This document shows positions 7,222-55,120 of a DNA stretch of 64,000 bases, piece by piece. This DNA is from an uncultured Gammaproteobacteria bacterium (lineage in GTDB: Bacteria > Patescibacteriota > Patescibacteriia > UBA1558 > 2-01-FULL-52-15), in assembly GCA_964422585.1 (NCBI GenBank), contig CAYRBH010000002.1, positions 13,428 through 77,427 on the forward strand, in the 5' to 3' direction. The notes beneath the pieces were generated by a model, which worked only from the letters and a program-made list of their open reading frames with translations, was not told where the DNA came from and did not search any database. The translations under genes and the position numbers were made by a program. Position 1 is the first letter of the stretch. The number at the start of each line of letters is the position of its first letter.

Positions 7222-8256
7222 TTACTGCTTCTGCTGCTGCGGGAAGAGCTTAACTACTTCCTGGTACACCAATCCTGAAACATCAGAAATAGTCGTTGCC
7301 ATCTGATCATAGTCGACTCCCTTCGTCATGACACATAAGAAATAAGGATGATCAGGATAGTATACGATGCCACAATCATGCAGCTCCCGATCCGTGACAG
7401 CGCCAGTACTCCCCGTCACAGTATGCTTACCGAATTTATGCGCGACGATCAGGGGCGCGCCAAGACCTTTCACGATACCGTCCGCGAAGGTGGCCTGCGT
7501 CAGTACATGCAATGCGCGTTGTGACATTTCTTTATCCAAATACGTCGCGTTATAGAGCACTCTGAAAAATGTTGAGTAGTTCTTCGCTGACATCTGATCC
7601 GGTTCGGTCGGATCTTGTCCGGTACCGAAAGGAACGCCTAGGTCGCTGTATACCTCCTTCAAAGAATTCGGGTCAATACTATTCGCGAGCAGATATAGTG
7701 CTACATTATCTGATTTTGTGATCATCTGCTCGATTAACTCCTCAATAGTATACTCTTTATTCTCAGTCAACAGATCCGGGGCGTCAAGATTGATCAATGA
7801 GCGCATAGCCGGAGTGATGGCATAGGTGACTTTTTTGGTAAGTATGTCAGGACTGGCCTCTGCCTCCTTATAGTAGGCTATCATGATTGGGACTTTCAAC
7901 AGGCTCGCTGGGGTATACTTTTCATTCTCATTCACCCCGACCCAGCGCCCGCTATTCATGGTGCGAAAATACACTGAAATCGAAGTAGCTTGGTTCGTGC
8001 TTACTTTCCGATCCACAAGGGCCTGGATGACCTTCTCAATAGGAGCGAACTCGGTGAATTCTTTCTGATCAGGGATATCACAACTCAGGAGCGGATTCAC
8101 CAAGTTATCATAGCCCTCTCTCTGTACTTGCATGCGTTCGTTTGCTGGGACGGTTGCTGGCAATGCGCTTCGCGCAGCCCAACCACCATAAAAGGAGGTC
8201 GCGAGGGCGGCAAGAACGAGTACAGAGAGTACCGCTCGGTTTCTGAGTATAGCCAT
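7222..8256 (-). CDS. Class A beta-lactamase-related serine hydrolase, membrane-anchored
   Basis: SxxK (ASLLK) and SDN (KSDNVA) motifs and a KxG-like element. N-terminal hydrophobic segment. Confidence 0.5.
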   Translation of the reverse strand: MAILRNRAVLSVLVLAALATSFYGGWAARSALPATVPANERMQVQREGYDNLVNPLLSCDIPDQKEFTEFAPIEKVIQALVDRKVSTNQATSISVYFRTMNSGRWVGVNENEKYTPASLLKVPIMIAYYKEAEASPDILTKKVTYAITPAMRSLINLDAPDLLTENKEYTIEELIEQMITKSDNVALYLLANSIDPNSLKEVYSDLGVPFGTGQDPTEPDQMSAKNYSTFFRVLYNATYLDKEMSQRALHVLTQATFADGIVKGLGAPLIVAHKFGKHTVTGSTGAVTDRELHDCGIVYYPDHPYFLCVMTKGVDYDQMATTISDVSGLVYQEVVKLFPQQQKQ

Positions 8257-12463: not shown

Positions 12464-12632
12464 CCGTCAGGTACTATTACTTGGTTATTGACAAGGATAC
12501 CGTACTGTTGTACCGTAGAGCGTTCTATGGTTAAATTGAATAAACGCACACACAGGCCTATTCCATAGTGGAATTTGCCCAGCGTGCACTCAACGTACCT
12601 TGACTTATAGGTTTAGGAAGGTGGTGATACCA

Positions 12633-13340
12633 GTGCGCCGATTCGTTTCTCTGTTTGTGACCGTGTTCGCTCTGTGCGCTCTCGAAGCGTACGCCGGAGA
12701 CCAGCCGAAGCCCCTCGTCATCCCTGACAACTTCTTCATGGCCTACGTCAAGCCGGACAACACCGTGGCCTTCGGGTTCTCGGTGCCGCCCGACGCAAAC
12801 CCCAACTTCGCTGAAGCAGACGCCAGTTGGTGGAACGTCGTCGCCAAGCACCGGGTCCTCATGGACACGAACGCCGACTACAAGGCGGCCTACTTCGCGA
12901 CAGCGAGCGATCCTGATCTCCAATCCACCGGCATTACGTTCAAAGCCTGGTCTACGGCATCGCAAGATGAAAAGGCCACGTTGCGGGCCACGTTGCGGCA
13001 GCGCGTCGCAGACGTACTCCAGAAACATGGTCTTCGAGACCAGCTCGCGAGCCTGCAGGCAGACAACCAGCAAGTCGCCCTCATGGCGATGCAGTTGAGC
13101 GGAGCGAAACGCACCGCTCTCCCCCTCGTCCGGTTCTGTCCGGGTGCCGAAGGCAACATCTCCGTCAATCACAACGACCCCGACTTCCCGAAGCTTGAGC
13201 AAGCGATGAAGACACCACGCTACGACGAGGCTCTCGTCGCTTTCAAGAACTTCGAAGCCGAACACCCCAACGCGTCGATCGACGACCGCACCGCTAAGCT
13301 CAACGAGCTCGTGCGGCCACTGCTGACCGCGTCCCAATAA
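12633..13340 (+). CDS. Secreted hypothetical protein (GC-rich, likely horizontally acquired)
   Basis: GTG start preceded by GGAAGGTGG RBS. Signal peptide (LFVTVFALCALEAYA|G). Coding GC is markedly higher than flanking genes. The ORF track extends to 12600. Confidence 0.5.
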   Translation: MRRFVSLFVTVFALCALEAYAGDQPKPLVIPDNFFMAYVKPDNTVAFGFSVPPDANPNFAEADASWWNVVAKHRVLMDTNADYKAAYFATASDPDLQSTGITFKAWSTASQDEKATLRATLRQRVADVLQKHGLRDQLASLQADNQQVALMAMQLSGAKRTALPLVRFCPGAEGNISVNHNDPDFPKLEQAMKTPRYDEALVAFKNFEAEHPNASIDDRTAKLNELVRPLLTASQ

Positions 13341-13385: not shown

Positions 13386-14114
13386 ATGATGAAGAACAGA
13401 CCGTCTCTCGTCCTCGGCTTGATCGCGTTCGCCGCCATGACCCCCGCCTCGTTCGCGGCGCAGAAGTCCGCGTCACCCCCGGTCAGTCTGACCCACAACG
13501 GGAGACTGAACGCTCCGCTTACGCCGATGCAGAACGAGATCTCGATCTACGTGACCGACACCGGCCGGCTGATCAGCCCGCCACCCATCGACTCGGCGAC
13601 CAACCAGCCGACACTGGACCTCGAGAAGGTCGCGAAGCACGAAGCCACGCAGGTCTGGATCAACGACAACCTGGACCATCTGAACGCCGTCGTCGGCAGA
13701 TTCGCCGCCGAGGCAAGAACGGCCAAGGCATCCGACGTGACCGGATACATCAATACCGCCTTGCAGGCTCACCTCGCGCAGATCGGAGCAGGCCGCGAAA
13801 TCGACAGGATCAACGCGACCATGATCCACCAGCTGGCAACGCCGGCGCCAAGCCCGGTTTCGACCGTCGGCAACAACCCGACCAACGCATCCCTCGTCGG
13901 GAACGTCGGGAAGGGCCAGGAGATCGACCCCAACAAGTACGCGCAGCTGAACGGCAGCTGCGGTCCTCGGGGCACGTGCCTCACCGTGGTGGAGATCTGC
14001 ATCACCGACCCGACCGGGACGAGTTGCAGCGTCATCGACTGCGACACCGGTTGCCGTGGCTGTTGCGGCTACGGCCTCAAGATGGCGGCGGTCGACCCGC
14101 CGGCGGCTTTCTAG
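13386..14114 (+). CDS. Secreted hypothetical protein with Cys-rich C-terminal tail
   Basis: AGGAG RBS and signal peptide. About 10 Cys lie in the last ~50 aa (CGPRGTC...CSVIDCDTGCRGCCGYG). GC-rich. Confidence 0.5.
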   Translation: MMKNRPSLVLGLIAFAAMTPASFAAQKSASPPVSLTHNGRLNAPLTPMQNEISIYVTDTGRLISPPPIDSATNQPTLDLEKVAKHEATQVWINDNLDHLNAVVGRFAAEARTAKASDVTGYINTALQAHLAQIGAGREIDRINATMIHQLATPAPSPVSTVGNNPTNASLVGNVGKGQEIDPNKYAQLNGSCGPRGTCLTVVEICITDPTGTSCSVIDCDTGCRGCCGYGLKMAAVDPPAAF

Positions 14115-14161
14115 CCGTACCTTCCTTCCCACAACCAGCCCGCGCGCAAGCGCGGTCTTCA

Positions 14162-14201
14162 GGGCGCGGGGACCTCACGGTTCTCGCGCCCTCCTTTTTT
14201 T
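14162..14201 (+). terminator. Rho-independent terminator after the GC-rich two-gene block
   Basis: GGGCGCG...CGCGCCC stem followed by a T7 run. A GNRA-loop hairpin lies just upstream. Confidence 0.5.
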
Positions 14202-18115: not shown

Positions 18116-18466
18116 ATGCTTTCCCGTGCTCATCGTTTGCGCGGTGATCCGGTATTTAAGAGGCTTGCGCGCATTGGGCAACCTTTTTTTGGTACTTCAT
18201 TGACCTTTCGCATTGCTCCACAAGGAACAGATCGCTCACTGCCAACCCGTTTTGCCTTCGTAGTCTCCACAAAGGTGAGCAAGAAGGCAGTTGAGCGCAA
18301 CTTATTGCGCAGAAGGCTTCGAGAAATTATCCGGGCAGAACTTCCTCAATTAAAAACAGGCCTTGAAGTCTTGATCATTGCGCGTCCCCAGGCACGGCAG
18401 CTTGATTTTCAAGCTTTGAAACAAGAAGTCGAAGCCTTACTCACAAAGTCTCGCCTATGGCTATAA
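18116..18466 (+). CDS. rnpA: Ribonuclease P protein component
   Basis: 116 aa, basic, with the RNLLRRRLRE motif. Immediately downstream of rpmH. Confidence 0.85.
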   Translation: MLSRAHRLRGDPVFKRLARIGQPFFGTSLTFRIAPQGTDRSLPTRFAFVVSTKVSKKAVERNLLRRRLREIIRAELPQLKTGLEVLIIARPQARQLDFQALKQEVEALLTKSRLWL

Positions 18467-18720
18467 GTACTAGCGTGCTCCTACTTCCACGCAGAGCTGT
18501 TCTGCAGCTGATACGGCTCTATCAGAGGACGGTATCTCCGGATACAGGCATAGTTGCGGCCCTTTTCCCACATGGTTATTGCCGTTTTCATCCAACCTGC
18601 TCAGAATATACATACCAAGCTATCGAACGGTATGGTATAGTACGAGGCAGTCTGAAGGGCGTCTACCGTATTATTCGCTGTAATCCCTGGAATACAGGCG
18701 GCATTGACCCTATAACCTAA
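18457..18720 (+). CDS. yidD: Membrane protein insertion efficiency factor YidD
   Basis: Conserved Cys pattern (CRFHPTCSEY...RCNPW). Overlaps the rnpA end by 10 nt. Confidence 0.8.
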   Translation: MAISTSVLLLPRRAVLQLIRLYQRTVSPDTGIVAALFPHGYCRFHPTCSEYTYQAIERYGIVRGSLKGVYRIIRCNPWNTGGIDPIT

Positions 18721-21874: not shown

Positions 21875-21935
21875 AACTTGCCATAGAGATAGAGCTTAAC
21901 TATAATTGAAACCTATTAATTAACTTTTCAAATAT

Positions 21936-31073: not shown

Positions 31074-31637
31074 ATGGCTACCACCATCGTTTCAGGAGGG
31101 AATGAGCTGCTCAATCCTATCGCAATACTGAAAGACCATTTAGGCATACGACCGAATCAGATCGTTGCTGATTTTGGTTGTGGCGGAGCCGGTTTTTTTG
31201 TATTGGCTTCAGCACGTCTCGTCGGTGAGCATGGTCAGGTCTATGCTGTCGATATCGTGAAGAATGTGCTTTCTAGTGTTGATGGTAAAGCAAAGCTGCA
31301 GGGGTTGTATAATGTAAAAACAGTATGGAGCGATCTGGAGATCTATGGTGCTATGACCATTCCTGAACAAAGCCTGGACCATGGTCTTCTCGTGAACACG
31401 TTATTTCAATCGAAGAAGCACGCGGATATTTTGAAAGAAGTAACTCGTTTGATAAAGCCGGGTGGTAAATTGCTGATCGTGGACTGGAATGATGTATCGG
31501 TATCATTCGGACCACCTGCGGCCGATAGGGTACGTCCTGAGTATCTGCGTGAGGTCGTGCCGCCGCTCGGGTATATGGAGGAGAAGTTTTTCCAAGCCGG
31601 TCAGTATCATTTTGGCATCGTTTTTACAAGGATTTAG
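31074..31637 (+). CDS. Class I SAM-dependent methyltransferase
   Basis: Motif I VADFGCGGAGFF and motif post-I VYAVDI. 187 aa. Confidence 0.65.
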   Translation: MATTIVSGGNELLNPIAILKDHLGIRPNQIVADFGCGGAGFFVLASARLVGEHGQVYAVDIVKNVLSSVDGKAKLQGLYNVKTVWSDLEIYGAMTIPEQSLDHGLLVNTLFQSKKHADILKEVTRLIKPGGKLLIVDWNDVSVSFGPPAADRVRPEYLREVVPPLGYMEEKFFQAGQYHFGIVFTRI

Positions 31638-31678: not shown

Positions 31679-31882
31679 TAAAAGTAGCGGGCCCCCCACG
31701 TACGGAAATTCGTGAGGGGCCCTTGGTGTGGCGGTAGGCGACCGCCGGCGCAACAGGAGGGGGAGCGGATCAGACGACGACGTATCGAGCTGACTACAAG
31801 ATCATTGTAGATCGGGGGTATAGTTTTTGTCAAAGGGATATCGTTGACTTTTGTCGGCCAATAGGATTAAATACCCTCTGTT

Positions 31883-40944: not shown

Positions 40945-41511
40945 ATGAAAAAAAGAGCTTTCATTATTCATGGTTGGGGAGGTTATCCTGAGGAAGCCTG
41001 GTTTCCTTGGTTGAAACAAGAACTAGAGTCGCGTGGTTTTGAAGTGCAGGTTCCGGCTATGCCGGATTCAGATACTCCGGTGATCGAAACATGGGTTTCG
41101 TTTTTGAGTAAACTCATTGGTGATCTTGACGAAAAAACGTATCTCATCGGACATAGTATTGGTTGTCAGGCAATACTCAGATACCTTGAGCGTCTGCCTG
41201 AGAACGTGAGAGTTGCAAAAGCGGTTTTTGTCGCAGGTTGGTTTACTTTGCAGGGTTTAGAAACAAAAGACGAAGAAAGAATTGCTGAACCCTGGCTTGA
41301 GCAACCGATTAACCTAGAAAAAGTTCGTGCGCATATTCAGGAAAACACTGCCATTTTTTCTGATGACGACCCCTTCGTTCCATTGATAGATAAGGATATT
41401 TTTTCGGAGAAACTTCAATCGAAGATTGTCATCGAACATGCAAAGGGCCATCTCAGCACTGAACATGGCATTACGGTATTGCCTAGTGTGTTGCAGGCAG
41501 TCATTGAATAA
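40945..41511 (+). CDS. Alpha/beta hydrolase of the RBBP9/YdeN serine-hydrolase family
   Basis: FIIHGWGG N-terminal motif, nucleophile elbow GHSIG and a C-terminal His. Confidence 0.6.
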   Translation: MKKRAFIIHGWGGYPEEAWFPWLKQELESRGFEVQVPAMPDSDTPVIETWVSFLSKLIGDLDEKTYLIGHSIGCQAILRYLERLPENVRVAKAVFVAGWFTLQGLETKDEERIAEPWLEQPINLEKVRAHIQENTAIFSDDDPFVPLIDKDIFSEKLQSKIVIEHAKGHLSTEHGITVLPSVLQAVIE

Positions 41512-41568: not shown

Positions 41569-44600
<3,032 letters not shown>

Positions 44601-44750
44601 TGTGTATTCCTCCTCAAGTCGTGAGATGTACGGTGGGGGTAAGTAGTTTCGTTCTGTCAAAGGACATGAAATCCCACTTAGGCTTTCTGTGGGATGCAGA
44701 GCTACCTTACGAAAAAATAGTGATAGGCGCAAGATCATTTTTTGTTCCAC

Positions 44751-44779
44751 TTGACAGGTTTTCAATAACCTGATATAGT
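44751..44779 (+). promoter_or_regulatory. Consensus sigma70-type promoter (TTGACA-17-TATAGT) reading into a non-coding GC-rich segment
   Basis: TTGACA at 44751..44756 and TATAGT at 44774..44779. The surrounding region is AT-rich. Confidence 0.4.
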
Positions 44780-45693
44780 ACTTGATTGTTACATATTTTG
44801 ATCTTTTTATCTTTGAAATAGTGGCCAAGAAAAGGCTAATTTTGTATCAAGTAGGCAGCCATGCTGTCTAATGAAAGCTGCTATCCAGACTCGTAATGAC
44901 GAGCATCTTGAGGATAGCAAGCTCAGCCGATACTTACTTGTTAACGGAAAGTATAAGGAATAGAGCAAGTTAGTCTTTTCTTGGCCATCGATAGACGTAT
45001 GGGACGTTTCGGCATGGTCAAGGAAGAGAGGTGCTGCTTGAGGCTCGGTCCGGGAGATTTTTTCCACACCATCATGAAAGACCAGTTGCGTAGCGACTCC
45101 GTGACCACGACCAAGGCCGTCGGCGCCGGCTCGGGCCAGACTCAGCCGACCTCCGCGACTTCCTGAAGCGCATGTACGTCGACGTACGCGCGGTTACGGT
45201 CCGCGTTCAGTAGGTCGGCACACAGGCGCTCGACGCCACAACTGTCAGCCGACAGGTGGTCGGCAGAGGAGCATGCGAAGATGCAGCTAAACGTCAAGAA
45301 GGGGGGCGCGGTTCCCGCGTTCGACGCGCAGCGTCGCTGACATCATCACGGTCGAAAGACCAACAGTTGCCTCTGCTAAGAGGGGGTAGAGCTCGCACAT
45401 GCGGCAGACCAACCGGGTAGCACAAGGATTATATCCTTCCCTCCCAACAGGTCGTGCCCGCGCCAGCACAAGACCCCATGGTGAGCCGCACCCGATCGAC
45501 CCTACGTTTGTGAGGACTCCCAAACCTCACCTCATTCATCGCAGCGAGCGGCGGCCTCTGTAGCGCCACTCAACCCCACGCGATGGGCGCGTAATGCCGA
45601 CCCTACCAGGTCGCGCGAACGTCCGCCGGCCGGCGATAGTGAGACCGCATCAAGCGGTGGGTGCACAGGTCAACCTGTGCAGTTTCTGTCCCT

Positions 45694-45745
45694 GGGGGAC
45701 CTTCGGGCGTTCGCAAGAACGTTCGTTGGTCCCCCTTTTATTTTC
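45694..45745 (+). terminator. Strong rho-independent terminator closing the GC-rich non-coding segment
   Basis: Stem GGGGGACC...GGTCCCCC with a nested CGTTC-GCAA-GAACG hairpin, followed by TTTTATTTT. Confidence 0.5.
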
Positions 45746-45797
45746 CTAAGATTTCTGATTGCATTTTTTATCGCCTATGATAGTATCGTGCAAGATT

Positions 45798-45812
45798 CCG
45801 TAAAATTTACGG
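45798..45812. promoter_or_regulatory. Perfect 7-bp-arm palindrome downstream of a TTGCAT-16-TAGTAT promoter, upstream of the ParB-like gene
   Basis: CCGTAAA a TTTACGG. Promoter -35 at 45759..45764 and -10 at 45781..45786. Confidence 0.35.
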
Positions 45813-45878
45813 ATCGTTCATTTCTAACACTAATTGTTTCTTTTCTCAGCCAAGATGGCTGATCAAGGAGGAGACTGA

Positions 45879-46805
45879 ATGACCACTCCGGCCGCTGCGA
45901 AGAGCCTGAAGTCTGTCCGCAAGCCGACCGCTCCCTCGTCCGGGGTCGTTCTCGAGATCCCCTTGGGATTGATCCGTAATTTCGTCGGACAGCCCAGGAA
46001 ACATTTCAACCAGGCACGTTTGGCCGAGCTTGCTACGAGTATCAAGAAGCACCGTCAGATCACGCCGGGGATGGTCATCGAACTCCCTCCGGGCGAGGTG
46101 TACCGTTACGAACTGGTCGATGGTGAACGTCGTTTCATCGCTTGTAAGATGGCCGACACGAAGATCTTCCGCGCTGAAGTGGTAACGGTCACGGATTCGA
46201 GAGAACAGCTTCTCAGGTCGGCGATCGCGAACTACCATCGCGAGCCGCATACAGCCCTCGAGGATGCTGAGACCTGTCGTCGGCTTGCTGAGATCTATGA
46301 GATGTCATGGCCGGAGGTTGCGGCCACGCTCGGCAAGTCTCTCACATGGGTGACACAGTCTCGTATCCCGCTGCTCCAGCTGGATAAGCGGGTGCAGGCG
46401 ATGATCGAGCCCTCATCCTCGAAGTTGGGCGAGCTGCCCGTTCTGATGGCGGTCGAGCTGACCAAGGTGCCAGCGACTAAGCAGTATCAGATGGCGGTGA
46501 AGGCCGTGCATGACGAGATGCGTTTATCCGATATGCGCCACGCCGTTCGCCGTTTCCAGAACAAGACCGGCTACCGACATGGTACGAGGCGTATTCGTAC
46601 CCCCGGCGATGACTACAAGTCGATTACTACGTTCTATCGGAGATCTACTGCTGATGCGCAGCTGTGGCTCTCCATGACTCCTGTGGCGCTCGCGAAGATG
46701 TTCGAGAACCGTCCGGAGATGGACTATCGGCGGTTGCTCAAAGCATCGGCGAACGCGGCCATCATCTATGGCCGTCTGATGAAGAAGATCCAGGATTTGA
46801 AGTAG
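45879..46805 (+). CDS. ParB/Sulfiredoxin-domain (ParB N-terminal nuclease-like) protein
   Basis: GERRFIA motif of the ParB N-domain. 308 aa. No adjacent parA. Confidence 0.6.
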   Translation: MTTPAAAKSLKSVRKPTAPSSGVVLEIPLGLIRNFVGQPRKHFNQARLAELATSIKKHRQITPGMVIELPPGEVYRYELVDGERRFIACKMADTKIFRAEVVTVTDSREQLLRSAIANYHREPHTALEDAETCRRLAEIYEMSWPEVAATLGKSLTWVTQSRIPLLQLDKRVQAMIEPSSSKLGELPVLMAVELTKVPATKQYQMAVKAVHDEMRLSDMRHAVRRFQNKTGYRHGTRRIRTPGDDYKSITTFYRRSTADAQLWLSMTPVALAKMFENRPEMDYRRLLKASANAAIIYGRLMKKIQDLK

Positions 46806-46846
46806 TCAGTACGCACCCGTTCCTTCCTACACGCGGCACAAGGGAG

Positions 46847-48133
46847 ATGATTATGTCTCGTAAACAGATTGAGTTGAGCCCCGAAGAGTTGGCAGAGGCT
46901 GCTCAGTTTGCGCGCGAGGCAGAAGAGCTTCACGCGCAACTCGATACAGGTACTGATCCGGTGATCGAAGAACCGTCTCGGGCTTTGAGGCCGATCGCTG
47001 AACGTAAGCCTCGATCGGCCAAGGGTCAGCCGAGCTCGACTTCTAAACAGCAGGCAACACTGGCAAGGCTCAAGAAAAAGGATCCTTACTCGGTGGTCCC
47101 GTTCACGCAGTATCTGCACGAGATGAGCCGGCACAGTCTGATCGACTATGACAAGGAGCAGGAGACGTTCACGCGTCTCGGAGAGCATCGGGTCAAGTTG
47201 CAGCTCTTGGCTGGCGGTTTGTCCGAGCACTGTCGCGCGTTCTGCGAGAAGGAGTCTGAGTTCGAGATGGCGAATGAGGAGTGGCGTTTCACTGACATAG
47301 AGAGTTTCGTGGGACGCCTCAGGTTCTACCATGGGGAGCCTCGGGTCTCTGACGAGGTCTTTGCTGAGGCGCGGAGCCACCTCAATGCCATCAGGGCTGC
47401 TCGGGATGAGATGATCCACGCGAACTTGCGTCTGGTCATTCACATCGCGAAGAAGTACCTGACGCACGGCGTTCCGTTCATGGACCTGATCCAGGAGGGT
47501 AATGTCGGTCTCATGAAGGCCGTCGAAAAGTTCGAGTACAAGCGAGGCAACAAGTTCTCTACGTACTCGTACTGGTGGATCAAGCAGTCGATCGAGCGGG
47601 CCATCGCGGACAAGGGACGACTCATCCGTGTTCCAGTGCATAAGCAAGAGAAGATCAAGAAGATGCAGCGCGTGTTGCGCGAACTGCCGGATGGCTTGAG
47701 TCGCACGGAAAGAGCGGCCGAGGTCGCGAAACGGCTCCGGTGGGCCTTGGGTCAGGTCGAGTCGCTCATGCTGGTCGTCGAGGAGCCAATGAACCTCGAT
47801 GATTTCATCGACGATTCGCATGAGCAAAACTTCCACATGCTTGTTGCTGATCCGCAAGCTGTCGATGGCGAGGAACAGTATGAGCAGCAGCAGTTCCGAG
47901 AGCGCGTGCGTGCCTTGCTGCACCAGATCAAGGAACCGCGGGATCGGTACATACTCGACTTGCGCTTCGGGATTAGCAGTGGTACGCCGATGACCCTCGA
48001 GGATATCGGTCGGAAGTTATATCTCTCCCGCGAACGGATACGCCAGCTTGAAACATTAGCGATGAATCAGATCCGTGAGTATTTGGACACTGACACCGCT
48101 GAGCTGCGGACACTTCACGAGTTACTGCAATGA
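46847..48133 (+). CDS. RpoD-family (group 1/2-like) sigma-70 factor
   Basis: Region 2 DLIQEGNVGLMKAVEKFEYKRGNKFSTYSYWWIKQSI and region 4 HTH LEDIGRKLYLSRERIRQLE. Start set at the in-frame ATG with GGGAG RBS; the track ORF begins at 46664 and overlaps the ParB-like gene. Confidence 0.8.
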   Translation: MIMSRKQIELSPEELAEAAQFAREAEELHAQLDTGTDPVIEEPSRALRPIAERKPRSAKGQPSSTSKQQATLARLKKKDPYSVVPFTQYLHEMSRHSLIDYDKEQETFTRLGEHRVKLQLLAGGLSEHCRAFCEKESEFEMANEEWRFTDIESFVGRLRFYHGEPRVSDEVFAEARSHLNAIRAARDEMIHANLRLVIHIAKKYLTHGVPFMDLIQEGNVGLMKAVEKFEYKRGNKFSTYSYWWIKQSIERAIADKGRLIRVPVHKQEKIKKMQRVLRELPDGLSRTERAAEVAKRLRWALGQVESLMLVVEEPMNLDDFIDDSHEQNFHMLVADPQAVDGEEQYEQQQFRERVRALLHQIKEPRDRYILDLRFGISSGTPMTLEDIGRKLYLSRERIRQLETLAMNQIREYLDTDTAELRTLHELLQ

Positions 48134-48155
48134 GGGGCAGAGCATCAACTAACAA

Positions 48156-48203
48156 GGGGTCGGACAGACTAAAGCAACATCGCGTCCGGCCCCTTTTCAT
48201 TTT
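48156..48203 (+). terminator. Terminator-like hairpin plus T-run after the sigma factor gene
   Basis: GGGGTCGGAC...GTCCGGCCCC followed by TTTTCATTTTTT. Confidence 0.45.
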
Positions 48204-48275
48204 TTCATTCTATTTTTTATGAAAGACGAGTATAGTCTTGAAGAAAGGCTTGCTATAGTGTACAATCCTTTGAAC

Positions 48276-49010
48276 ATGAGTTCTCCCATCGAGATACATT
48301 TAGACAAGGTTACGAAAACGTATAAGAATGGCTTTCAGGCATTGAAAGGCATCTCTCTGGATATTTACAAAGGAGAGATTTTCGCTTTATTAGGGCCGAA
48401 TGGCGCTGGCAAGACTACCATCATTAATATTATTGCTGGTCTTACGCGGAAAACCTCAGGCGAAGTTCTGGTCCAAGGAAAAGATGTTGAGAAAGACTAT
48501 CGCTTCACGCGTTCGAAGATCGGCTTGGTGCAGCAAGAGGTGAATACCGATTTCTTTTTGAAAATTTTCGAAGTGATTAAGTATCAGGGCGGCTACTATG
48601 GCAAAACGGATCTTGACGCACGCGTCGAAGAGATCCTGAAGAAACTGCATTTCTGGGATAAAAAAGATCAGCCAGGAAGATTCTTATCTGGCGGTATGAA
48701 GCGACGGATCATGATAGCGAAAGCGTTGATCCACGATCCTGAGATCATTTTTCTGGATGAACCAACGGCTGGCGTTGATGTCGAGTTGCGCGCTGACTTG
48801 TGGGACACGATACGTGAGATGAAGTCACTCGGGAAAACGATCATTCTCACTACGCATTATCTCGAAGAAGCGGAAGACTTGGCTGATCGCATCGGCATTA
48901 TCAGCGGAGGAGAGCTGCAATTAGTCGAGGATAAGAAAACATTGATGCAGCGCTACGGCACGAAGCTGCAGGATATATACCTTGAGGTGATACAGAAAGG
49001 AGTGAAATAA
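48276..49010 (+). CDS. ABC transporter ATP-binding protein
   Basis: Walker A GPNGAGKTT, signature LSGGMKRR and Walker B IIFLDEPTAGVD. Start moved to ATG 48276 because a TTGAAG-17-TACAAT promoter lies inside the track ORF's first 57 nt. Confidence 0.8.
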   Translation: MSSPIEIHLDKVTKTYKNGFQALKGISLDIYKGEIFALLGPNGAGKTTIINIIAGLTRKTSGEVLVQGKDVEKDYRFTRSKIGLVQQEVNTDFFLKIFEVIKYQGGYYGKTDLDARVEEILKKLHFWDKKDQPGRFLSGGMKRRIMIAKALIHDPEIIFLDEPTAGVDVELRADLWDTIREMKSLGKTIILTTHYLEEAEDLADRIGIISGGELQLVEDKKTLMQRYGTKLQDIYLEVIQKGVK

Positions 49011-49011
49011 G

Positions 49012-49773
49012 ATGAATCTCATTGGCGTCAAGACACTCATGAAGAAAGAGCTGGTGCGCTTCATCCGCGTGCCGCTGCAAACGATCGCCACGCCGGTCAT
49101 TACGACGGTGCTGTATTTCGCGGTGTTCAGCACATCGATCGGTAGTCGTATTGGTTCAGTGCAGGGTCTAAGATATGGAGAATTCATCATGCCGGGACTG
49201 CTCATGATGAACTTGGTTATGACGGCATTCGAGGGCATTGCGTCAGGCATTATGCTCACGAAATTCATGAATACGATGACGGATATTTTGGTAAGTCCAA
49301 TGTCCTATGGCGAAATTATCTTAGGCTTCGTGGCTTCATCGACCATTCGTACCATGATCACCGGAACAATCCTCTACGGCACGGCATTATTTTTCATACC
49401 ATTCCGCGTTGATCATCCGTTCTTTCTCATCGGATTTTGTATCTTAGTCTGTCTGATCTTTTCTTTGATAGGACTGGTGATCGGCATCTGGGCGGATGAT
49501 TTTGAAAAGCTCAGCATCATCCCCACCTTCCTCCTAACGCCATTGAGCTTTTTGGGTGGCGTTTTTTATTCGACGACAATGCTGCCGAAGCTCGCGCAGA
49601 TGATAGCGGTGTATAATCCGCTGCTCTATATGATCAACGGCATGCGCTATGGTTTCTATAGCATCTCTGATGTTGCTCCTGTGTTCGCGGTGAGTGTGCT
49701 GGTCATCATGACAGTTGCCATGATCTGGTTCACTCTGTATCTTTTTAAAATCGGTTATAAGCTGAGGAGCTGA
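49012..49773 (+). CDS. ABC-2 type transporter permease
   Basis: 253 aa, 6 TM segments. Start abuts the ATPase stop. Confidence 0.6.
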   Translation: MNLIGVKTLMKKELVRFIRVPLQTIATPVITTVLYFAVFSTSIGSRIGSVQGLRYGEFIMPGLLMMNLVMTAFEGIASGIMLTKFMNTMTDILVSPMSYGEIILGFVASSTIRTMITGTILYGTALFFIPFRVDHPFFLIGFCILVCLIFSLIGLVIGIWADDFEKLSIIPTFLLTPLSFLGGVFYSTTMLPKLAQMIAVYNPLLYMINGMRYGFYSISDVAPVFAVSVLVIMTVAMIWFTLYLFKIGYKLRS

Positions 49774-49844
49774 TACTCGAGACGCCTTGCGTTATAAGGC
49801 TATTTTCAGTAAGGTTGGGCTGTCAGTTGCCTAATAGTAGGAGG

Positions 49845-49876
49845 GCGGGAATACTCCCGCTTTTCTGATTTTTTGG
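49845..49876 (+). terminator. Rho-independent terminator after the ABC operon
   Basis: GCGGGA atac TCCCGC stem followed by TTTTCTGATTTTTT. Confidence 0.5.
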
Positions 49877-49919
49877 CGAAGTTCATTAACACGTGTAACT
49901 ACGTAGAGAAGGGTTACCC

Positions 49920-50267
49920 ATGAAGCGCAACCTGACTGATGTGATGCATCCGAAACTCGTCCGAGATAAGATCCCCGATAGGATACGTAGAGATCAGCGT
50001 ATCCCGGTGACGCGGGAGGCCTTGCCGGAGGAGCGTCTGGGTTTTGTGGTGGCAAAGCTCTGTGAGGAAGCGCGCGAGCTCCATGACAATCCCGATGCTA
50101 AGGAATACGCTGATGTTCTCGACGTCGTGCGGCTGCTCCGGATCGAATTCGAAAAAAAATTCGACAAGAAGTTTCTCGGCGCCGAACGTCGACGCAAGAA
50201 GAAGGAAAACGGTGGCTTTCGTAAGTTCATCATCTTGGTGGACATTCAAGAGTCTTCATCAGTCTGA
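49920..50267 (+). CDS. MazG-like / HisE-like nucleoside triphosphate pyrophosphohydrolase
   Basis: EExxE...E/D-x-x-D metal-binding helices (KLCEEARELHD...EYADVLDVV) and C-terminal KKKENGGF. 115 aa. Confidence 0.5.
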   Translation: MKRNLTDVMHPKLVRDKIPDRIRRDQRIPVTREALPEERLGFVVAKLCEEARELHDNPDAKEYADVLDVVRLLRIEFEKKFDKKFLGAERRRKKKENGGFRKFIILVDIQESSSV

Positions 50268-50294
50268 CAGCAGTGCTGTCAGCGGGAGGATCGC

Positions 50295-51572
50295 ATGAGC
50301 CGCAATGTCATGGTCGTCGGCAGCGGCGGCCGTGAAGGGTCGCTGTTGCATAAGTTGAGCGGATCGCCGCACAAGAAGAAGCTGTTCTGCTCACCCGGGA
50401 TCGGTAATGCGCATGAGATGGGCGTTTTGAATACCGGCATCGCCCAGGACGATATCCTTGGGATCGTCGCATTCGCGAAGAAGCATCACATCGAGCTCAC
50501 GGTCCCTGGTCCGGATGTGGTGTTCGCCGCGGGGATCGCGGACGCATTTCGCGCGGCCAAGCTCCGGATTGTCGGGCCTACTCAGGCGGCCGCGCGCGTC
50601 GAATCCTCGAAGGTGTTCGCCAAGCGCCAGATGCAACGTCTGGGCATACCTACGGCGGCCTTCGAGGTTGCCTATTCGATGAGTGAGGCGCTCGACATTC
50701 TGGGTCGACGCTCATTCCCGTGCGTGATCAAGCTGGATCGCCTCGCTCGAGGTACCGGCGCTACGCCCGTGCATTCCTATTCGGCGGGCATCGCAGTTCT
50801 CTCAGGGTACTATCAGAAGAACCCGAGAGAGGCCATCCTGATCGAAGATTTCCTCGTGGGGCATGAGGTGTCTACCCATGCGCTCTGCAGTGGAAATCGA
50901 GTCCTCATGTTTCAGGGGGCACGTGATTACAAAACGCTCAACGGCAGGAATACCGGCGGTATGGGTGCCTACTCTCCGGTACCCGACATCGACGATGCCT
51001 TCTTGGCGCAGGTCAGGCAGGTCGCTATCGATCCGCTACTTCGGATGCTCGCGAAAGCTGGCACTCCATTCGATGGTTGTTTGTACCCGGGACTCATGGT
51101 AACTGCCGAAGGGATCATGGTGATCGAGTACAACTGTCGCTTCGGCGACCCTGAGGCGCAGGTGTTCATGCGCAGACTTGGAAATGAGAGCGATCTTTTG
51201 CTACTTCTCGAGTCATGCGCTGACGACAACCTGGACACCACTCCATTGCACTGGAACGCTGAACCTGCCGTGTGCGTGGTGCTGGCTTCGGCGGGCTACG
51301 GCGTGCCGGGTGCTCTCTGCCCGTCCTCAGAGTATCCGTCGATGCCGATCAGTGGCTTGCGAGAAGCCATGAAGGTGCCTGGCGTGGAGATATTTCACGC
51401 GGGTACCCGACTCGAGAAGGGTGTGTACTGGACCAATGGTGGTCGCGTGCTGAACGTCACTGCAGTCGGCGCAACACTTGCCGAAGCCCGTGCGCGCGCC
51501 TACGCCGCGGTTGCCTTGATTCACTTCGACGGTATGCAGTACCGTCTGGACATCGGCGAGGTAGCAGCATAA
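50295..51572 (+). CDS. purD: Phosphoribosylamine--glycine ligase
   Basis: N-terminal VVGSGGREGSL motif and an ATP-grasp body. 425 aa. Confidence 0.85.
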   Translation: MSRNVMVVGSGGREGSLLHKLSGSPHKKKLFCSPGIGNAHEMGVLNTGIAQDDILGIVAFAKKHHIELTVPGPDVVFAAGIADAFRAAKLRIVGPTQAAARVESSKVFAKRQMQRLGIPTAAFEVAYSMSEALDILGRRSFPCVIKLDRLARGTGATPVHSYSAGIAVLSGYYQKNPREAILIEDFLVGHEVSTHALCSGNRVLMFQGARDYKTLNGRNTGGMGAYSPVPDIDDAFLAQVRQVAIDPLLRMLAKAGTPFDGCLYPGLMVTAEGIMVIEYNCRFGDPEAQVFMRRLGNESDLLLLLESCADDNLDTTPLHWNAEPAVCVVLASAGYGVPGALCPSSEYPSMPISGLREAMKVPGVEIFHAGTRLEKGVYWTNGGRVLNVTAVGATLAEARARAYAAVALIHFDGMQYRLDIGEVAA

Positions 51573-51597
51573 CCACGCTGACAGAGAGGAGATAGTC

Positions 51598-51927
51598 ATG
51601 CTAGGAGATCCAAGTGGTAATCTGAACGCAGATGATTCAGCAGAGCCAACCATTGCTCAACGTGAGCTCAACTACGTTGAGTACTTTTTCCCTGAAGCAG
51701 AAGAAGCTGAAGGGGAATCTACTGACAAGCTTCGGTGTGGCGAGGCTCAGGTAACGGAGACGACGGATCCTGCAGCGATGCAGTTTCCTGAGGGAGCGGT
51801 CGCTCTTCGTTTCTATCGGGCAGCCGAAGTTCGTCATCTGCTCAACGGCAGTTGGAAGTTAGCTAGCGCTAAGCGCGTCTGGGAGTCGCCTATGATTCCC
51901 ATCACGCGAACACGCTTCAAGAGGTAA
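51598..51927 (+). CDS. Hypothetical protein
   Basis: 109 aa with an acidic N-terminal half. No recognisable motif. Confidence 0.3.
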   Translation: MLGDPSGNLNADDSAEPTIAQRELNYVEYFFPEAEEAEGESTDKLRCGEAQVTETTDPAAMQFPEGAVALRFYRAAEVRHLLNGSWKLASAKRVWESPMIPITRTRFKR

Positions 51928-52142
51928 GGACGCCCCATCGGGTTTGCTGAGCATAGGCTCGGCCGACTCGGTGGGGTTTTGAATCGTCTTGTTTTTTATA
52001 GTACATCATCTAGTATGCAGATAGACGAGTCAGACCAGGAGGCCTGGCTTGTATGTTCTTCGAAAACTGAGTGAATTGATAATTTTCTTTGGCCGAACAA
52101 CATCGTCGCGACTACTAGGTCGCACTAAAGGAGACAGATAGC

Positions 52143-52919
52143 ATGCTGGCAAAGCACCGGATTATCGTGGCATTGGATGTTGACAACCCGAAGCGAGCGA
52201 CCTCGCTCATCAAATCTCTGGCGTCGCATGTGGGCTACTTCAAGATCGGCCGTGAGATGCAGGCCGCATTCGGCCTTCCGCAAGCGATCGATTTCGTTCA
52301 CGCTGCCGGCGGCGACATCTTCCTGGATGGTAAGGAGAATGACATCCCGAACACGGTCGCAGCGACAGTGCGGGTCATCGCGCAGAAGAGGGTCGCGATG
52401 CTCAATGTTCATTGTTTGGGCGGCGAGGAGATGATGCGCGCGGCTGCGCAAGCAGCGCGCGAGGTTGCACAGGAGACTGGAAGTCACTCCTTGGTTCTCG
52501 GTGTCACGCTTCTGACGAGTCAGGATTACGGCACCTTGCAGCGCCTGGGCTTCGTCGACTCGCTGGATCGGATGCAGGGCCCGCAACAGCGGCAGGAGAT
52601 AGCGGAGGTCAAGCTCAGCGCCATCGTGAACCATCTGGCAGTTCTTGCCAAAGACTGCGGGCTCAACGGGGTGATTTGTTCTCCGAAGGAAACAGAGATG
52701 GTGCGCGGCAGTTGCGGCGATGACTTCTGCATCGTGAATCCGGGTATCAGACCCGCAGGCACTTCGCTCGACGATCAGAAGCGGGTTGGCACGCCGGCTA
52801 TGGCTATCAAAGCGGGAGCAACGCATCTGGTGATCGGACGACCCATCACCGGAGCAGCGGATCCTGTTGCGGCAGCGATCGCCATCGCTGCCGAGATTGA
52901 AGCAGCGCAGGCTGTCTGA
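52143..52919 (+). CDS. pyrF: Orotidine 5'-phosphate decarboxylase
   Basis: IVALD N-terminal motif and catalytic D-x-K-x-x-D-IPNT (FLDGKENDIPNT). 258 aa. Confidence 0.85.
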   Translation: MLAKHRIIVALDVDNPKRATSLIKSLASHVGYFKIGREMQAAFGLPQAIDFVHAAGGDIFLDGKENDIPNTVAATVRVIAQKRVAMLNVHCLGGEEMMRAAAQAAREVAQETGSHSLVLGVTLLTSQDYGTLQRLGFVDSLDRMQGPQQRQEIAEVKLSAIVNHLAVLAKDCGLNGVICSPKETEMVRGSCGDDFCIVNPGIRPAGTSLDDQKRVGTPAMAIKAGATHLVIGRPITGAADPVAAAIAIAAEIEAAQAV

Positions 52920-52965
52920 ATCCGTGCTTCCCACACCAATACTTTTTCTGCCCTAAGGAGGGACC

Positions 52966-53736
52966 ATGACCATTCGTCGTGACATTCCGCCACACATCGA
53001 CCCGATCGAACTCTGGAAAGCGGCCGGTGGCTTCTACCAGTGCCCGAAAGACGCTGATGGTAAGCGCCTCGGCCCGCTCGTCGGTTACGCGGGGACTTAC
53101 CAGGACGATCTTGACTTGAACAAGCACTATGTCGGCGAAGTATACTTCAACTTCGCCGCGGTCGAACAGTACCCTCGGCCATTGCGTCGTTTCGCTCAAC
53201 TTCTGATGCTGCAATTGGAGCAGGAGGGGGACATCTCTGTCTTTCTCGGCGCTCCGATGGGTGGCATCGGCCTTGCGTTCGCGCTTGGTGACTTCTTCGA
53301 AGACGTTCGTGTCGTCTTCGCAGAGAAGAAAGTTCTTGCTCCGGGATCGGAGCGAGAGCAATCTTCGCTCGTCATCGCGCGGCATGAACTCGATCCCGAC
53401 GATCGAGTCGTCATCATCGAAGATGTCTGTAACAACTTCTCCACGACTGAGCAGCTAATCAACCTCGTTCAGGCCTCCGGCGCCACCGTTTGCGCCATCG
53501 GCTGCGCCTTGAATCGTTCGGAGATGAGTTGCTACCATCCGCCCTCGGCGCCTCTGGGCGATCATCTGCCCGTTCGATCCGTCATCCACATTCCTTCGCC
53601 GCAGTTCAGGCAGAAGGATCTCGAGGTCTGGGAAGACGTCAGGGATGGCAACATCGTGTGGAAGCCGAAGGTCGACTGGGAACGACTCATGACAGCGATG
53701 AACGCATCGGGTCAGGAGACTCCCCATGGCAAGTAG
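52966..53736 (+). CDS. Phosphoribosyltransferase-fold protein, possible divergent orotate phosphoribosyltransferase
   Basis: PRPP-binding-like motif DRVVIIEDVCNNFSTT. Adjacent to pyrF. Confidence 0.45.
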   Translation: MTIRRDIPPHIDPIELWKAAGGFYQCPKDADGKRLGPLVGYAGTYQDDLDLNKHYVGEVYFNFAAVEQYPRPLRRFAQLLMLQLEQEGDISVFLGAPMGGIGLAFALGDFFEDVRVVFAEKKVLAPGSEREQSSLVIARHELDPDDRVVIIEDVCNNFSTTEQLINLVQASGATVCAIGCALNRSEMSCYHPPSAPLGDHLPVRSVIHIPSPQFRQKDLEVWEDVRDGNIVWKPKVDWERLMTAMNASGQETPHGK

Positions 53737-54083
53737 CCGAAATGCCCGCCGGCGTCGAAGACGCGCGCGTAAGGGCGGTCAGTACTTCAAGCAAGGCCGC
53801 AAAGTCAAAGCCTGCTATCATAACTACTGGCCGCACTCCGGTCGCCGCTGAGCGAGCGCGGCCGCTCATTCACTCATAACAAACCGCAGAATAGGAGGCT
53901 GCGGAGGAGGCAAAGGTTAGCTATGGCTAACCTTTTTGCTTTTGCTGAGTAGGTTGAAATTTTCTGGTACTTGACTTTTTAAAGTAGATTATGTATAGTA
54001 GGTGTTTAGTTTGTTCTGCTCGCATAGTGCGAGTAGGGCGCGGGTTCATTTAATGTTTCCTTTCAAGGCATAGGAGAAGAAAC

Positions 54084-54608
54084 GTGTATTACTGCGTCGT
54101 TTTGAGTCGCCCTGATAGTCGCGGTCACCTCAAGGAAGCCTTGGCTGCTAAACTTCGTCGCAAGGACGAGCGTCTGCACACCAATCTCACTGACGCTTAC
54201 GACGAGTTCGGCATCGCGATGAGCGAGATCTCGTTTTTTGCGAACAACCAGGAGGTCTGTATGATCGCCGGTGAGCGTCTGCTCGACGGCGGTTCCGGCA
54301 CGGCCTTCGCTCAGCGTTTCAAGGCGAAGTACCCGAAAGGGATCTTCATCCTTTTCACGCAGTTCAGCCTGGACGGCATCGACACGGACAATCCTCTGAT
54401 CGACGCCGTGATCGCCCAGCATCCCGGCGGAAACAATCCGTTCGAGACGCTCGCCGAAATTCTGGTCACGCATCTGCACTTCATCGATGTGCATTCCCTG
54501 AAGCGAGAGCACCCCGCGCTGCTGCTTCGTCACGAAGTGCGGGTGCTGCAGGAGCGCAAGAAGGCCGAGTATCGTTTCTCGCGAGTTGCGGTGGAAAGAC
54601 GGTCGTAA
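54084..54608 (+). CDS. Hypothetical protein
   Basis: 174 aa. Preceded by a TTGACT-17-TATAGT-like promoter in an AT-rich spacer and followed by a hairpin and T-run. Confidence 0.35.
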   Translation: MYYCVVLSRPDSRGHLKEALAAKLRRKDERLHTNLTDAYDEFGIAMSEISFFANNQEVCMIAGERLLDGGSGTAFAQRFKAKYPKGIFILFTQFSLDGIDTDNPLIDAVIAQHPGGNNPFETLAEILVTHLHFIDVHSLKREHPALLLRHEVRVLQERKKAEYRFSRVAVERRS

Positions 54609-55120
54609 GGCCTGCCTTGAACGAAAACAGTTGCCTGCCGTGCGTAGTGTGCACGGTGGGCGTTTTTGTTTGCAGAAAAATATTGAACTGTGAGCGAGTC
54701 TTTGTTAGGATACTTAGGTCAGTAAGTACCTTGAGAGAAAAATAAGCCGTCGAAGTGTCTCGTTGATATGAAAAAAAGAATATTCTTTGGTGGAATAGTC
54801 TGAGTGAATGAGTATGCCGTCCGCAGCAGTCGACAGCTTAAGAAAAAGTGACTAACAGTTCTCACGGGATGGTTCGTCTTCAGTGGATGCTTCCTGGGTC
54901 TCGGCTCGGAATATGCTACTGTTGGATAAACCAAAAATCCCCGAAGGGACTTTTGGCGAAAAGCGATTTCGATGCCGTACATTTGGTGGAACGGCATCAC
55001 CGATATAGTACCACTGCAGTTTTTGAATTGTCAACTACTACAACGGGTGATCGCTTGTGCGATCATTTTTTTGCTAATTAGTGGCGATGTCATGGGTGAC
55101 GATCCGTGGCAGCGCTGTAA

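Follow-up and report, generated by a model that had tools for sequence, protein, structure and literature searches.

Genomic context of the locus

The divergent genes guaB and a ParB-like gene are separated by a gene-free gap of 1267 nt (1.27 kb) in the window, by which we mean the whole 64-kb stretch of DNA that was analysed. To the left of the gap lies the minus-strand gene guaB (43089-44600/44612), which encodes IMP dehydrogenase (IMPDH) and comes after purA, the gene for adenylosuccinate synthetase. To the right lies the plus-strand gene for a ParB-like protein (45879-46805), and directly behind it, on the same strand, a gene for a sigma-70 family protein, the two forming one ParB-like/sigma-factor operon. 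The gap itself holds a predicted plus-strand unit of about 960 nt with a promoter and a terminator at its ends, an AT-rich domain of strong folding potential behind the promoter and a GC-rich core. Candidate-phyla bacteria have very compact genomes, and against this background it is unusual, and calls for an explanation, that 1.27 kb should hold no gene and yet carry near-perfect signals for expression.

For the two flanking proteins, the best matches come from Patescibacteria/CPR (Parcubacteria, Minisyncoccia and similar) and from some DPANN archaea, the nearest relatives being 60% identical to IMPDH and 34-38% identical to the ParB-like protein. The latter occurs in one sequencing run and one NCBI record only, and a contig scan with it returned nothing above 37% identity. 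Judging from the names of the matches, these low identities and the rare occurrence of the ParB-like protein point to an isolated uncultured lineage. A Parcubacteria relative keeps the ParB-like/sigma pair, with ordinary small genes upstream, about 150 nt before the pair, and no element of the present kind. A Patescibacteria relative (L024, GCA_964357225.1) shares the gene order H+-PPase, trigger factor, purA-guaB and OMP decarboxylase and carries unrelated secreted-protein genes at the position of the segment, so that the segment is lineage-specific; two genes on the guaB strand lie directly upstream of guaB in this relative. No counterpart of the segment was found in the loci around homologues of the ParB-like protein and IMPDH.

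Promoter and terminator

A predicted sigma-70-type promoter occupies positions 44751..44779 of the plus strand, with a -35 hexamer TTGACA (44751-44756), a 17-nt spacer, within the 17 ± 1 nt expected of this promoter type, and a -10 hexamer TATAGT (44774-44779). The two hexamers match the consensus at 11 of 12 positions and a TG extension is present (extended -10 TGaTATAGT, 44771-44779), which bears out the near-consensus promoter reported here by the first-pass annotation, a reading of the DNA by eye. Both strands of the 64 kb contain four sites with at least 11 of 12 matches, compared to about 1.2 expected from block shuffles, and the promoter at 44751 alone among them combines a 17-nt spacer with a TG. 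Another site of at least 11/12, at 21878, is situated 58 nt upstream of a thioredoxin-like ORF. Transcription from the 44751 promoter would start near 44786, and the predicted transcript would begin with an AT-rich unstructured 5' end (44786..44820, plus strand) that includes 2.4 copies of TTTTGATC at 44796-44814.

At the far end of the unit lies an intrinsic terminator (45694..45744, plus strand), the stem of which pairs 45694-45712 with 45717-45735 and is followed by UUUUAUUUU. The hairpin comprises 17 bp including two G·U pairs, a GCAA loop and a 2x2 internal loop; its energy is -34.4 kcal/mol (z = -6.1) and the minimum free energy (MFE) structure accounts for 92% of the ensemble. The combination of hairpin and U-tract that characterises Rho-independent terminators is found on the plus strand. 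Since the wobbles are G·U on this strand and a U-tract is missing from the other, the terminator serves the plus strand, and the strong terminator that had been noted at the end of the unit is upheld in this orientation alone. The sigma-factor gene is followed by a terminator of the same architecture (~48154-48195). A perfect 8-bp hairpin, TGCACAGG-tcaa-CCTGTGCA, with a weak U-run behind it, precedes the terminator at 45662..45681 on the plus strand, and the 3' end folds with z = -7.3. A tRNA with an intron was considered for this part of the unit and rejected: the hairpin at 45662-45681 is by eye unlike a T-arm, ARAGORN predicts no tRNA and there is no match to group I introns.

A structured domain at the 5' end

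About 35 nt past the presumed transcription start begins an AT-rich domain of 168 nt (44821..44988, plus strand) which is predicted by folding to form a four-way junction. Its closing helix, P1, pairs 44821-44842 with 44967-44988 over 21-22 bp and encloses hairpins A (44847-44874), B (44879-44919) and C (44921-44966), all on the plus strand. The MFE of the plus strand between 44806 and 45000 is -71.3 kcal/mol (z = -6.42), and none of 200 shuffles was equally stable; the opposite strand reaches -56.4 kcal/mol (z = -4.6). As DNA, the inverted repeat of P1 is 21 nt long and 90% complementary. P1 contains two non-Watson-Crick pairs only, both of them G·U on the plus strand and hence A·C on the other, and hairpin A carries one more plus-strand G·U. 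The 15 kcal/mol asymmetry between the strands results from these G·U pairs, and on the folding model the domain is a structure of the RNA, on the plus strand.

The strength of this signal can be gauged against the remainder of the DNA. The 64 kb were cut into 319 non-overlapping 200-nt windows with 20 dinucleotide shuffles each, which gave a background of mean z -0.42 (sd 1.33). The 200-nt window 44801-45000 has the most negative value of all 319 (z = -6.7) and out-scores those that hold tRNAs; together with 45601-45800 (z = -5.3), at the terminator end of the unit, it makes up the two most extreme of the 64 kb. The promoter, the G·U pairs and the U-tract agree in strand, and the promoter-to-terminator unit that had been annotated stands as a unit, although the accompanying idea of a large RNA in its core does not, for reasons of folding that are set out below.

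Composition and folding of the GC-rich core

The first-pass annotation had placed the interest of the locus in a GC-rich island within AT-rich DNA, rich in perfect hairpins and short GC stems, and had read it as a candidate for a large structured non-coding RNA (ncRNA). The core is indeed GC-rich (61.5-64.5%), compared to 35-40% in the left flank, i.e. the promoter/leader zone, and 44% in the right flank before the ParB-like gene. However, neighbouring genes have a GC content of 53-61%, so that the core is only modestly enriched relative to its surroundings; the island was overstated, the AT-rich zones being no more than the short promoter and leader.

Folded as a whole, the 960-nt unit is far more stable than its shuffles (z = -7.9 on the plus strand and -5.6 on the minus strand), but about 48 of the 57 kcal/mol of excess fall in the two 200-nt blocks that hold the 5' domain and the terminator region. 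The three 200-nt windows over 45001-45600 between them have z values of +2.2, -1.3 and -0.9, and the core alone (44996-45660) folds with z = -1.30, one of 20 shuffles being equally stable. Sub-windows of 150-300 nt within the core range from z = +1.5 to -3.1, and the strongest 150-nt signal among them, at 45140-45289 (z = -2.9), is equal on both strands. Folding energies below those of dinucleotide shuffles, the generic hallmark of a structured RNA, are thus found in the 5' domain and at the 3' end and not in the GC-rich core. The hairpin at 45662-45681 is perfect, as had been described, but the remaining hairpins and stems are no more than chance would supply: the GC stems of the core are a product of its 63% GC composition. 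The downstream part of the core is a GC-rich (~63%), C-/A-rich tail (45320..45661, plus strand) in which neither a coding signal nor extra folding stability is seen, with GC skew down to -0.20 and z values mostly between -1.3 and +0.4. The extreme value for the whole segment came mainly from two short end elements, and GC-richness alone is no evidence of structure. The feature of interest had thus been put in the wrong place, for what is remarkable is the fold of the AT-rich 5' domain and not that of the GC-rich core.

Coding signals in the core

The absence of a convincing long ORF, on which the earlier reading had relied, is confirmed, inasmuch as no ORF in 44780-45760 exceeds 86 aa. Nevertheless, a codon-like three-base periodicity runs through 45030..45320, indicative of coding or formerly coding sequence on one strand or the other. 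Between 45030 and 45300 the periodicity reaches chi2 = 18.5, which was equalled by 3 of 2000 block shuffles when all windows of the core were scanned; real coding windows have a median of 8.5 and a 90th percentile of 18.6. Over 45300-45700 the values drop to 0.1-1.2, under the 10th percentile of coding windows, and across the tail (45320..45661) all six frames are near or below zero in codon score.

On the plus strand a short ORF extends over 44999..45166 and ends with the TGA at 45164-45166; it has 55 codons when counted from ATG 44999, 50 from ATG 45014 and 42 from TTG 45038, and its predicted residues read MGRFGMVKEERCC.../(M)RLGPGDFF.... A gene caller independently predicted the 50-aa version on the Logan contig, and this version forms a singleton cluster without relatives. 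Every gene in the interval 41.5-54 kb has a strong Shine-Dalgarno (SD) sequence. No such sequence precedes ATG 44999 or ATG 45014, both in frame, and the start codon behind the one candidate site is the TTG: a purine run, AAGGAAGAGAGGTGC (45020..45034, plus strand), ends 3 nt before TTG 45038. The predicted duplex of AAGGAAGAGAGGTGC with the anti-SD has an energy of -12.1 kcal/mol, compared to -8.6 to -11.6 kcal/mol for the SDs of the neighbouring genes. The SD-like run may also be incidental to the Lys-Glu-Glu-Arg codons that it spells.

Codon usage was scored as log-odds trained on the neighbouring GC-rich genes. The plus-strand ORF (44999/45038-45166) scores about 0.24-0.26 per codon, near the average of 0.32 for true frames, and open segments of at least 40 codons in the wrong frames of real genes average -0.25 (sd 0.23), 0.9% of them reaching 0.24; with 27 open segments tested, chance alone would yield a score of at least 0.24 with a probability of about one quarter (~0.24). 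The overlapping minus-strand frame scores 0.01-0.07 per codon and shares its third positions with the plus-strand ORF, in the manner of a shadow frame. Past the TGA of the ORF, positive codon scores continue in another plus-strand frame (45100-45220) and then in the first frame again (45250-45310), a frame-hopping pattern that suggests a reading frame broken by frameshifts. Alternatively, the signal can be followed in one single minus-strand frame that is interrupted by one TGA at 45142-45144. The putative coding character of the core consists of the periodicity at 45030-45300 and the codon usage and SD-like site of the plus-strand ORF; it is limited to 42-55 codons of open frame, and 45320-45690 has no such signal. 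Read on the plus strand, 44999..45166 would be a tiny gene in its own right or else the N-terminal stump that a decayed gene has left.

Searches for relatives

The segment was compared with known RNA families, proteins and DNA at several levels of sensitivity. At the gathering threshold, Rfam 15, which includes RNase P, tmRNA, SRP, 6S, OLE, GOLLD, ROOL, HEARO, raiA, group I and II introns and riboswitches, matches three tRNAs in the 64-kb window and nothing at the segment. When the whole region and two sub-regions were scanned at E<=10, noise alone was returned (best score 20.5 bits against a cutoff of 155 bits), and the 5' domain on its own matches no Rfam family at E<=10. ARAGORN finds neither tRNA nor tmRNA in the segment. 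A single-sequence covariance model of the 5' domain yields no second copy in the 64-kb window with filters off and no match in 18 loci from relatives, and an exact/IUPAC pattern of the stem arm has no match in viral contigs. Pseudo-proteins derived from the 5' domain and from the core likewise detect no relatives in degenerate DNA scans of viral contigs and JGI metagenomes, the latter having been scanned twice; these scans yielded no homologues from which covariation could be read, and the annotated RNA is matched by no Rfam family. At the DNA level, 'distant' blastn against phages and plasmids gives no match, and a self-blast of the 64-kb window reveals no paralogue.

Protein searches were similarly barren. 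Six-frame scans against Pfam, NCBIfam and PHROGs identify no family, tblastn against plasmids gives no match, and phmmer against PDB sequences returns one match at chance level (E = 0.051, 17 bits). No intact protein was found to which the translation could be aligned through frameshifts or stops, as would be expected of a pseudogene from a known family. A 133-aa concept of the minus-strand frame, searched with phmmer against 1.84 billion representatives, gave four matches, all of which were rejected: the two sequences that were retrieved and the aligned top match are tandem-repeat proteins, in which weak repeats sum to an inflated score. A chimeric query of the 27 open segments found nothing among 5.8 billion proteins, and this search, which was capped at 8000 candidates, is discounted because it missed even the 50-aa ORF of the segment itself, which that collection contains.

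Several specific element types were also tried and set aside. A TIGR/CRISPR-like array was rejected because there are no repeats. The palindromes GTACGTCGACGTAC and CGCCGGCCGGCG are perfect, but they are neither significantly enriched nor repeated, and a parS site or operator was dismissed. A retron msr-msd would fit the inverted repeat, but no downstream frame contains a reverse transcriptase domain and the next gene downstream is the ParB-like one.

A proposed reading: the message of a tiny or decayed gene

The locus is an orphan, and the observation itself is real. Our preferred reading, offered tentatively and with somewhat less than even confidence, is that the lineage-specific plus-strand unit of about 960 nt is no large structured RNA but an mRNA, whose gene is either very small or in decay. 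The near-consensus extended -10 promoter would fire rightward, away from guaB, and nucleotides ~36-203 of the predicted transcript would fold into the very stable four-way junction closed by the 21-22 bp helix, in which we see a putative stabilising or regulatory leader. A perfect helix of the length of P1 is the kind of duplex that RNase III cuts. Directly behind the junction, the SD-like run and the 42-55-codon ORF with the codon usage of its neighbours would provide the coding part of the message, and the periodicity that continues for ~150 nt beyond the stop in other frames may be the relic of a once longer frame broken by frameshifts. There would follow an untranslated tail of ~530 nt, the last ~380 nt of which are GC-rich, degenerate and devoid of any sign of coding or of structure, before the predicted transcript ends at the strong hairpin and U-tract, 130 nt ahead of the ParB-like/sigma-factor operon.

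Structured leaders with a long RNase III-type helix are carried, for example, by the pnp and rnc mRNAs of E. coli. The present unit is reminiscent of leaders of this type in having a long near-perfect helix near the 5' end and just upstream of the putative ribosome-binding region, a helix that is specific to one strand and has a strong promoter upstream. It differs from them in that the helix closes a 124-nt insert of three hairpins and that the gene behind it is tiny or dead; no sequence relationship was found, and cleavage is here a prediction. The unit also shares the attributes of a unitary pseudogene or gene remnant in a compact genome, namely a promoter, an SD-like site, a start codon, a terminator, residual periodicity and frame hopping. 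Unlike such a pseudogene, it has no intact or disrupted homologue in the databases searched, more than half of its body is devoid of coding signal, and its flanking signals are near-perfect. The decayed gene that the first-pass annotation had offered as its second option gains partial statistical support from the periodicity at 45030-45300, the gene-like codons and the SD-like run, but the disrupted known protein that would have identified it was not found.

Some further properties of the locus sit uneasily with the preferred reading. An ORF of 42-55 aa followed by an untranslated tail of ~530 nt is odd for a live gene; a single frame on the minus strand fits the periodic signal about as parsimoniously; and the searches described above found no homologue of the ORF or of any frame. 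If the unit is a dying gene, it would capture gene loss at a stage when the reading frame has gone and its promoter, leader and terminator are still in place. If instead the 5' domain acts as a functional RNA, a regulator confined to this lineage would adjoin a sigma-70-family gene.

Alternative explanations

The foremost alternative, which we consider possible and distinctly less probable than a coin toss, is that the unit is an ncRNA whose functional module is the 5' junction, maybe a small RNA of ~125-170 nt that RNase III would set free by cutting the 21-22 bp helix, with the rest of the unit, GC-rich, as a dispensable or unstructured tail. In its favour, the domain is the strongest structure in the 64 kb, it is strand-specific, and immediately upstream of it lies a promoter that ranks among the four best matches of the window. 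P1 forms 21-22 consecutive pairs with zero mismatches on the plus strand, and the ORFs that begin inside or right behind the domain (ATG 44871, 44999 and 45014) have no SD. Against this, the domain lacks an Rfam match and a second copy in the window or in the 18 loci of relatives, and without DNA relatives there can be no covariation; there is no terminator behind it, and the two differences between the arms, if they are transitions, would both produce G·U pairs by chance about 1 time in 4. Among known RNAs, 6S RNA is similar to the 5' domain in size (~170-200 nt), in its long closing helix and in the adjoining sigma-70 family gene. However, the three separate hairpins found here differ from the central bubble and terminal helix of 6S, and the Rfam 6S models are not matched at E<=10. 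Target prediction with RNAduplex against 48 translation-initiation regions was uninformative and was dropped. A bolder version, and an unlikely one, would make 44821-44988 the founder of a new small-RNA class from an unsampled Patescibacteria lineage, cut from its precursor at P1; less likely still, the entire 960 nt would be a long ncRNA with the GC-/C-rich tail as an unstructured platform.

Two further readings are each improbable. According to the first of them, the core would be what is left of a minus-strand gene that formerly belonged to the guaB operon and preceded guaB in it, and the plus-strand signals would be unrelated or secondary. A minus-strand frame whose first codon positions fall on coordinates with mod 3 = 0 runs from 45342 to 44944 without a stop save for one TGA and has positive Markov and codon scores over 44980-45220, and the syntenic relative described above does have two genes on the guaB strand in just this position. 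But its score per codon is typical of the shadow frame of a plus-strand gene, the frame has no SD and is unlike the neighbours in that relative, its phmmer matches are repeat-protein artefacts and plasmids contain no match; the plus-strand terminator, moreover, would be left unexplained.

The second reading, held with equally little confidence, regards the 960 nt as a long regulated leader of the ParB-like/sigma-factor operon, with the 5' domain as a sensor and 45694-45744 as a conditional terminator, i.e. an attenuator. The unit shares the orientation of the operon, the ParB-like start lies 130 nt past its end, and between the terminator and the ParB-like gene there is only a weak promoter (9/12). 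Known attenuators, however, are far shorter than such a leader would be. A competing anti-terminator pairing is not apparent, the terminator's MFE structure making up 92% of the ensemble, and the ParB-like/sigma pair of the Parcubacteria relative manages with ~150 nt upstream and without any comparable element.

A large structured ncRNA of a new class in the ~0.7-kb GC-rich core, the reading that goes back to the first-pass annotation, is now very hard to sustain: the z of -7.9 for the full unit on the plus strand, the values of some sub-windows (45095-45394, -2.5; 45140-45289, -2.9; 45195-45494, -2.85; 45395-45694, -3.1) and the presence of GNRA-capped and perfect short hairpins speak for it, but the excess sits mostly in the two end blocks, the core folds like its shuffles (z = -1.30), the 45140-45289 signal does not distinguish the strands, ~300 nt show a codon periodicity that is foreign to structured RNAs, and there are neither Rfam matches nor homologues. 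OLE, GOLLD, ROOL, raiA and HEARO resemble the unit in size (~0.6-1 kb), intergenic location, their own promoter and terminator and the lack of an ORF. Those classes are defined by conserved, covarying structure, whereas the present unit has no homologue family, matches no covariance model at E<=10 and includes a long GC-rich part without excess folding energy.

It is just as improbable that the 5' inverted repeat is an element of the DNA, either a repeated palindromic or MITE-like sequence or a hotspot of rearrangement, and not a structure of the RNA. There is no second copy in the 64 kb, the two positions at which the arms differ form G·U pairs on the plus strand alone, with the 15 kcal/mol asymmetry that goes with them, and the geometry of the breakpoint is by reasoning unfit for an inversion between the 21-nt arms. 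An invertible segment was rejected for that reason, as the contig breakpoint does not fit a crossover within the arms. What speaks for a DNA element is the assembly: two independent Logan contigs, 43080-44849 and 44821-54980, meet with a 29-nt overlap exactly at the base of the helix, a junction that points to a branch in the assembly graph. The guaB contig is also broken at its other end, so that such breaks may be common in this sample.

A GC-rich gene block and the contig junction

Between positions 41500 and 54000, composition and translation signals change abruptly relative to the rest of the window. From purA to the gene for a 256-amino-acid ORF at 52966-53736, the genes of this block have a GC content of ~55-58%, and nearly all of them carry a strong Shine-Dalgarno sequence, with duplex energies of -8.6 to -11.6 kcal/mol (median across the window -1.95). 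Genes elsewhere in the window have ~44-51% GC and mostly lack a Shine-Dalgarno sequence. This split in both GC content and Shine-Dalgarno signals suggests that the block was horizontally acquired or is evolving differently. However, the larger gene order is common to the window and to L024, a GC-rich syntenic relative from the Patescibacteria.

Two independent Logan contigs assembled from sequencing run SRR12313479, spanning 43080-44849 and 44821-54980, meet at the base of the helix that closes the 5' domain of the predicted transcription unit. Their 29-nt overlap (44821-44849) falls exactly on this helix base and thereby indicates a branch in the assembly graph, due either to a variant within the population or to a 29-30-mer that is repeated. 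The Logan contig of guaB, 1.77 kb long, breaks at both its ends.

Relatives of the flanking genes

The guaB-purA gene pair is common to Patescibacteria and DPANN-type archaea, as are IMPDH sequences with close scores in the list of homologue matches, and one of the retrieved loci (L025) carries genes for an archaeal-type ribosomal protein and a Cdc45-like protein. Taken together, these observations hint at an inter-domain transfer of the purine genes.

On the other side of the transcription unit, a ParB-like gene encoding ParB_N and HTH_ParB domains is directly followed by a sigma-70 family gene (45879-48133). The same pair is kept on a Parcubacteria metagenome contig (L017, 6001-7858) despite an identity of only 34%. 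A further ParB-like homologue, P0005, which is 31% identical, stems from the same sequencing run as the ParB-like protein of the window (loci L019 and L020). It is encoded on a 333-kb contig of 64% GC (GCA_964551765.1), so the sample also contains an organism of much higher GC content.

Putative origin region and other unusual stretches

An rnpA-like ORF (18116-18466) and a YidD-like ORF (18457-18720), both assigned by eye on the basis of the translated sequences, are located near the minimum of the cumulative GC skew at ~20-21 kb, a proximity that suggests a replication origin region close by. If the former is indeed rnpA, the RNase P RNA gene would lie outside the window.

The segment 12558-14132 (62.6% GC) contains ORFs of ~220-260 amino acids mirrored on opposite strands, at 12600-13340 and 13386-14114 (+ strand) and 12558-13337 and 13473-14132 (- strand), none of which has a match in Pfam; the 200-nt window 14001-14200 is highly structured (z = -4.2). 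A second gene-poor gap of ~460 nt, at 54660-55120, is without a match in Rfam. It is associated with terminator-like hairpins at 54632-54662 and 55045-55068, and a promoter-like site on the - strand (TTGACA-18-TACTAT, 55034-55005; 10/12 with TG) is directed into it.

Two other near-consensus promoters (both 11/12) were located at 21878 (+ strand), with a thioredoxin-like ORF 58 nt downstream, and at 31833 (- strand), directed leftward. Since the latter faces a methyltransferase gene of the + strand (31074-31637) from its 3' end, transcription from this predicted promoter may yield an antisense RNA or a small one.
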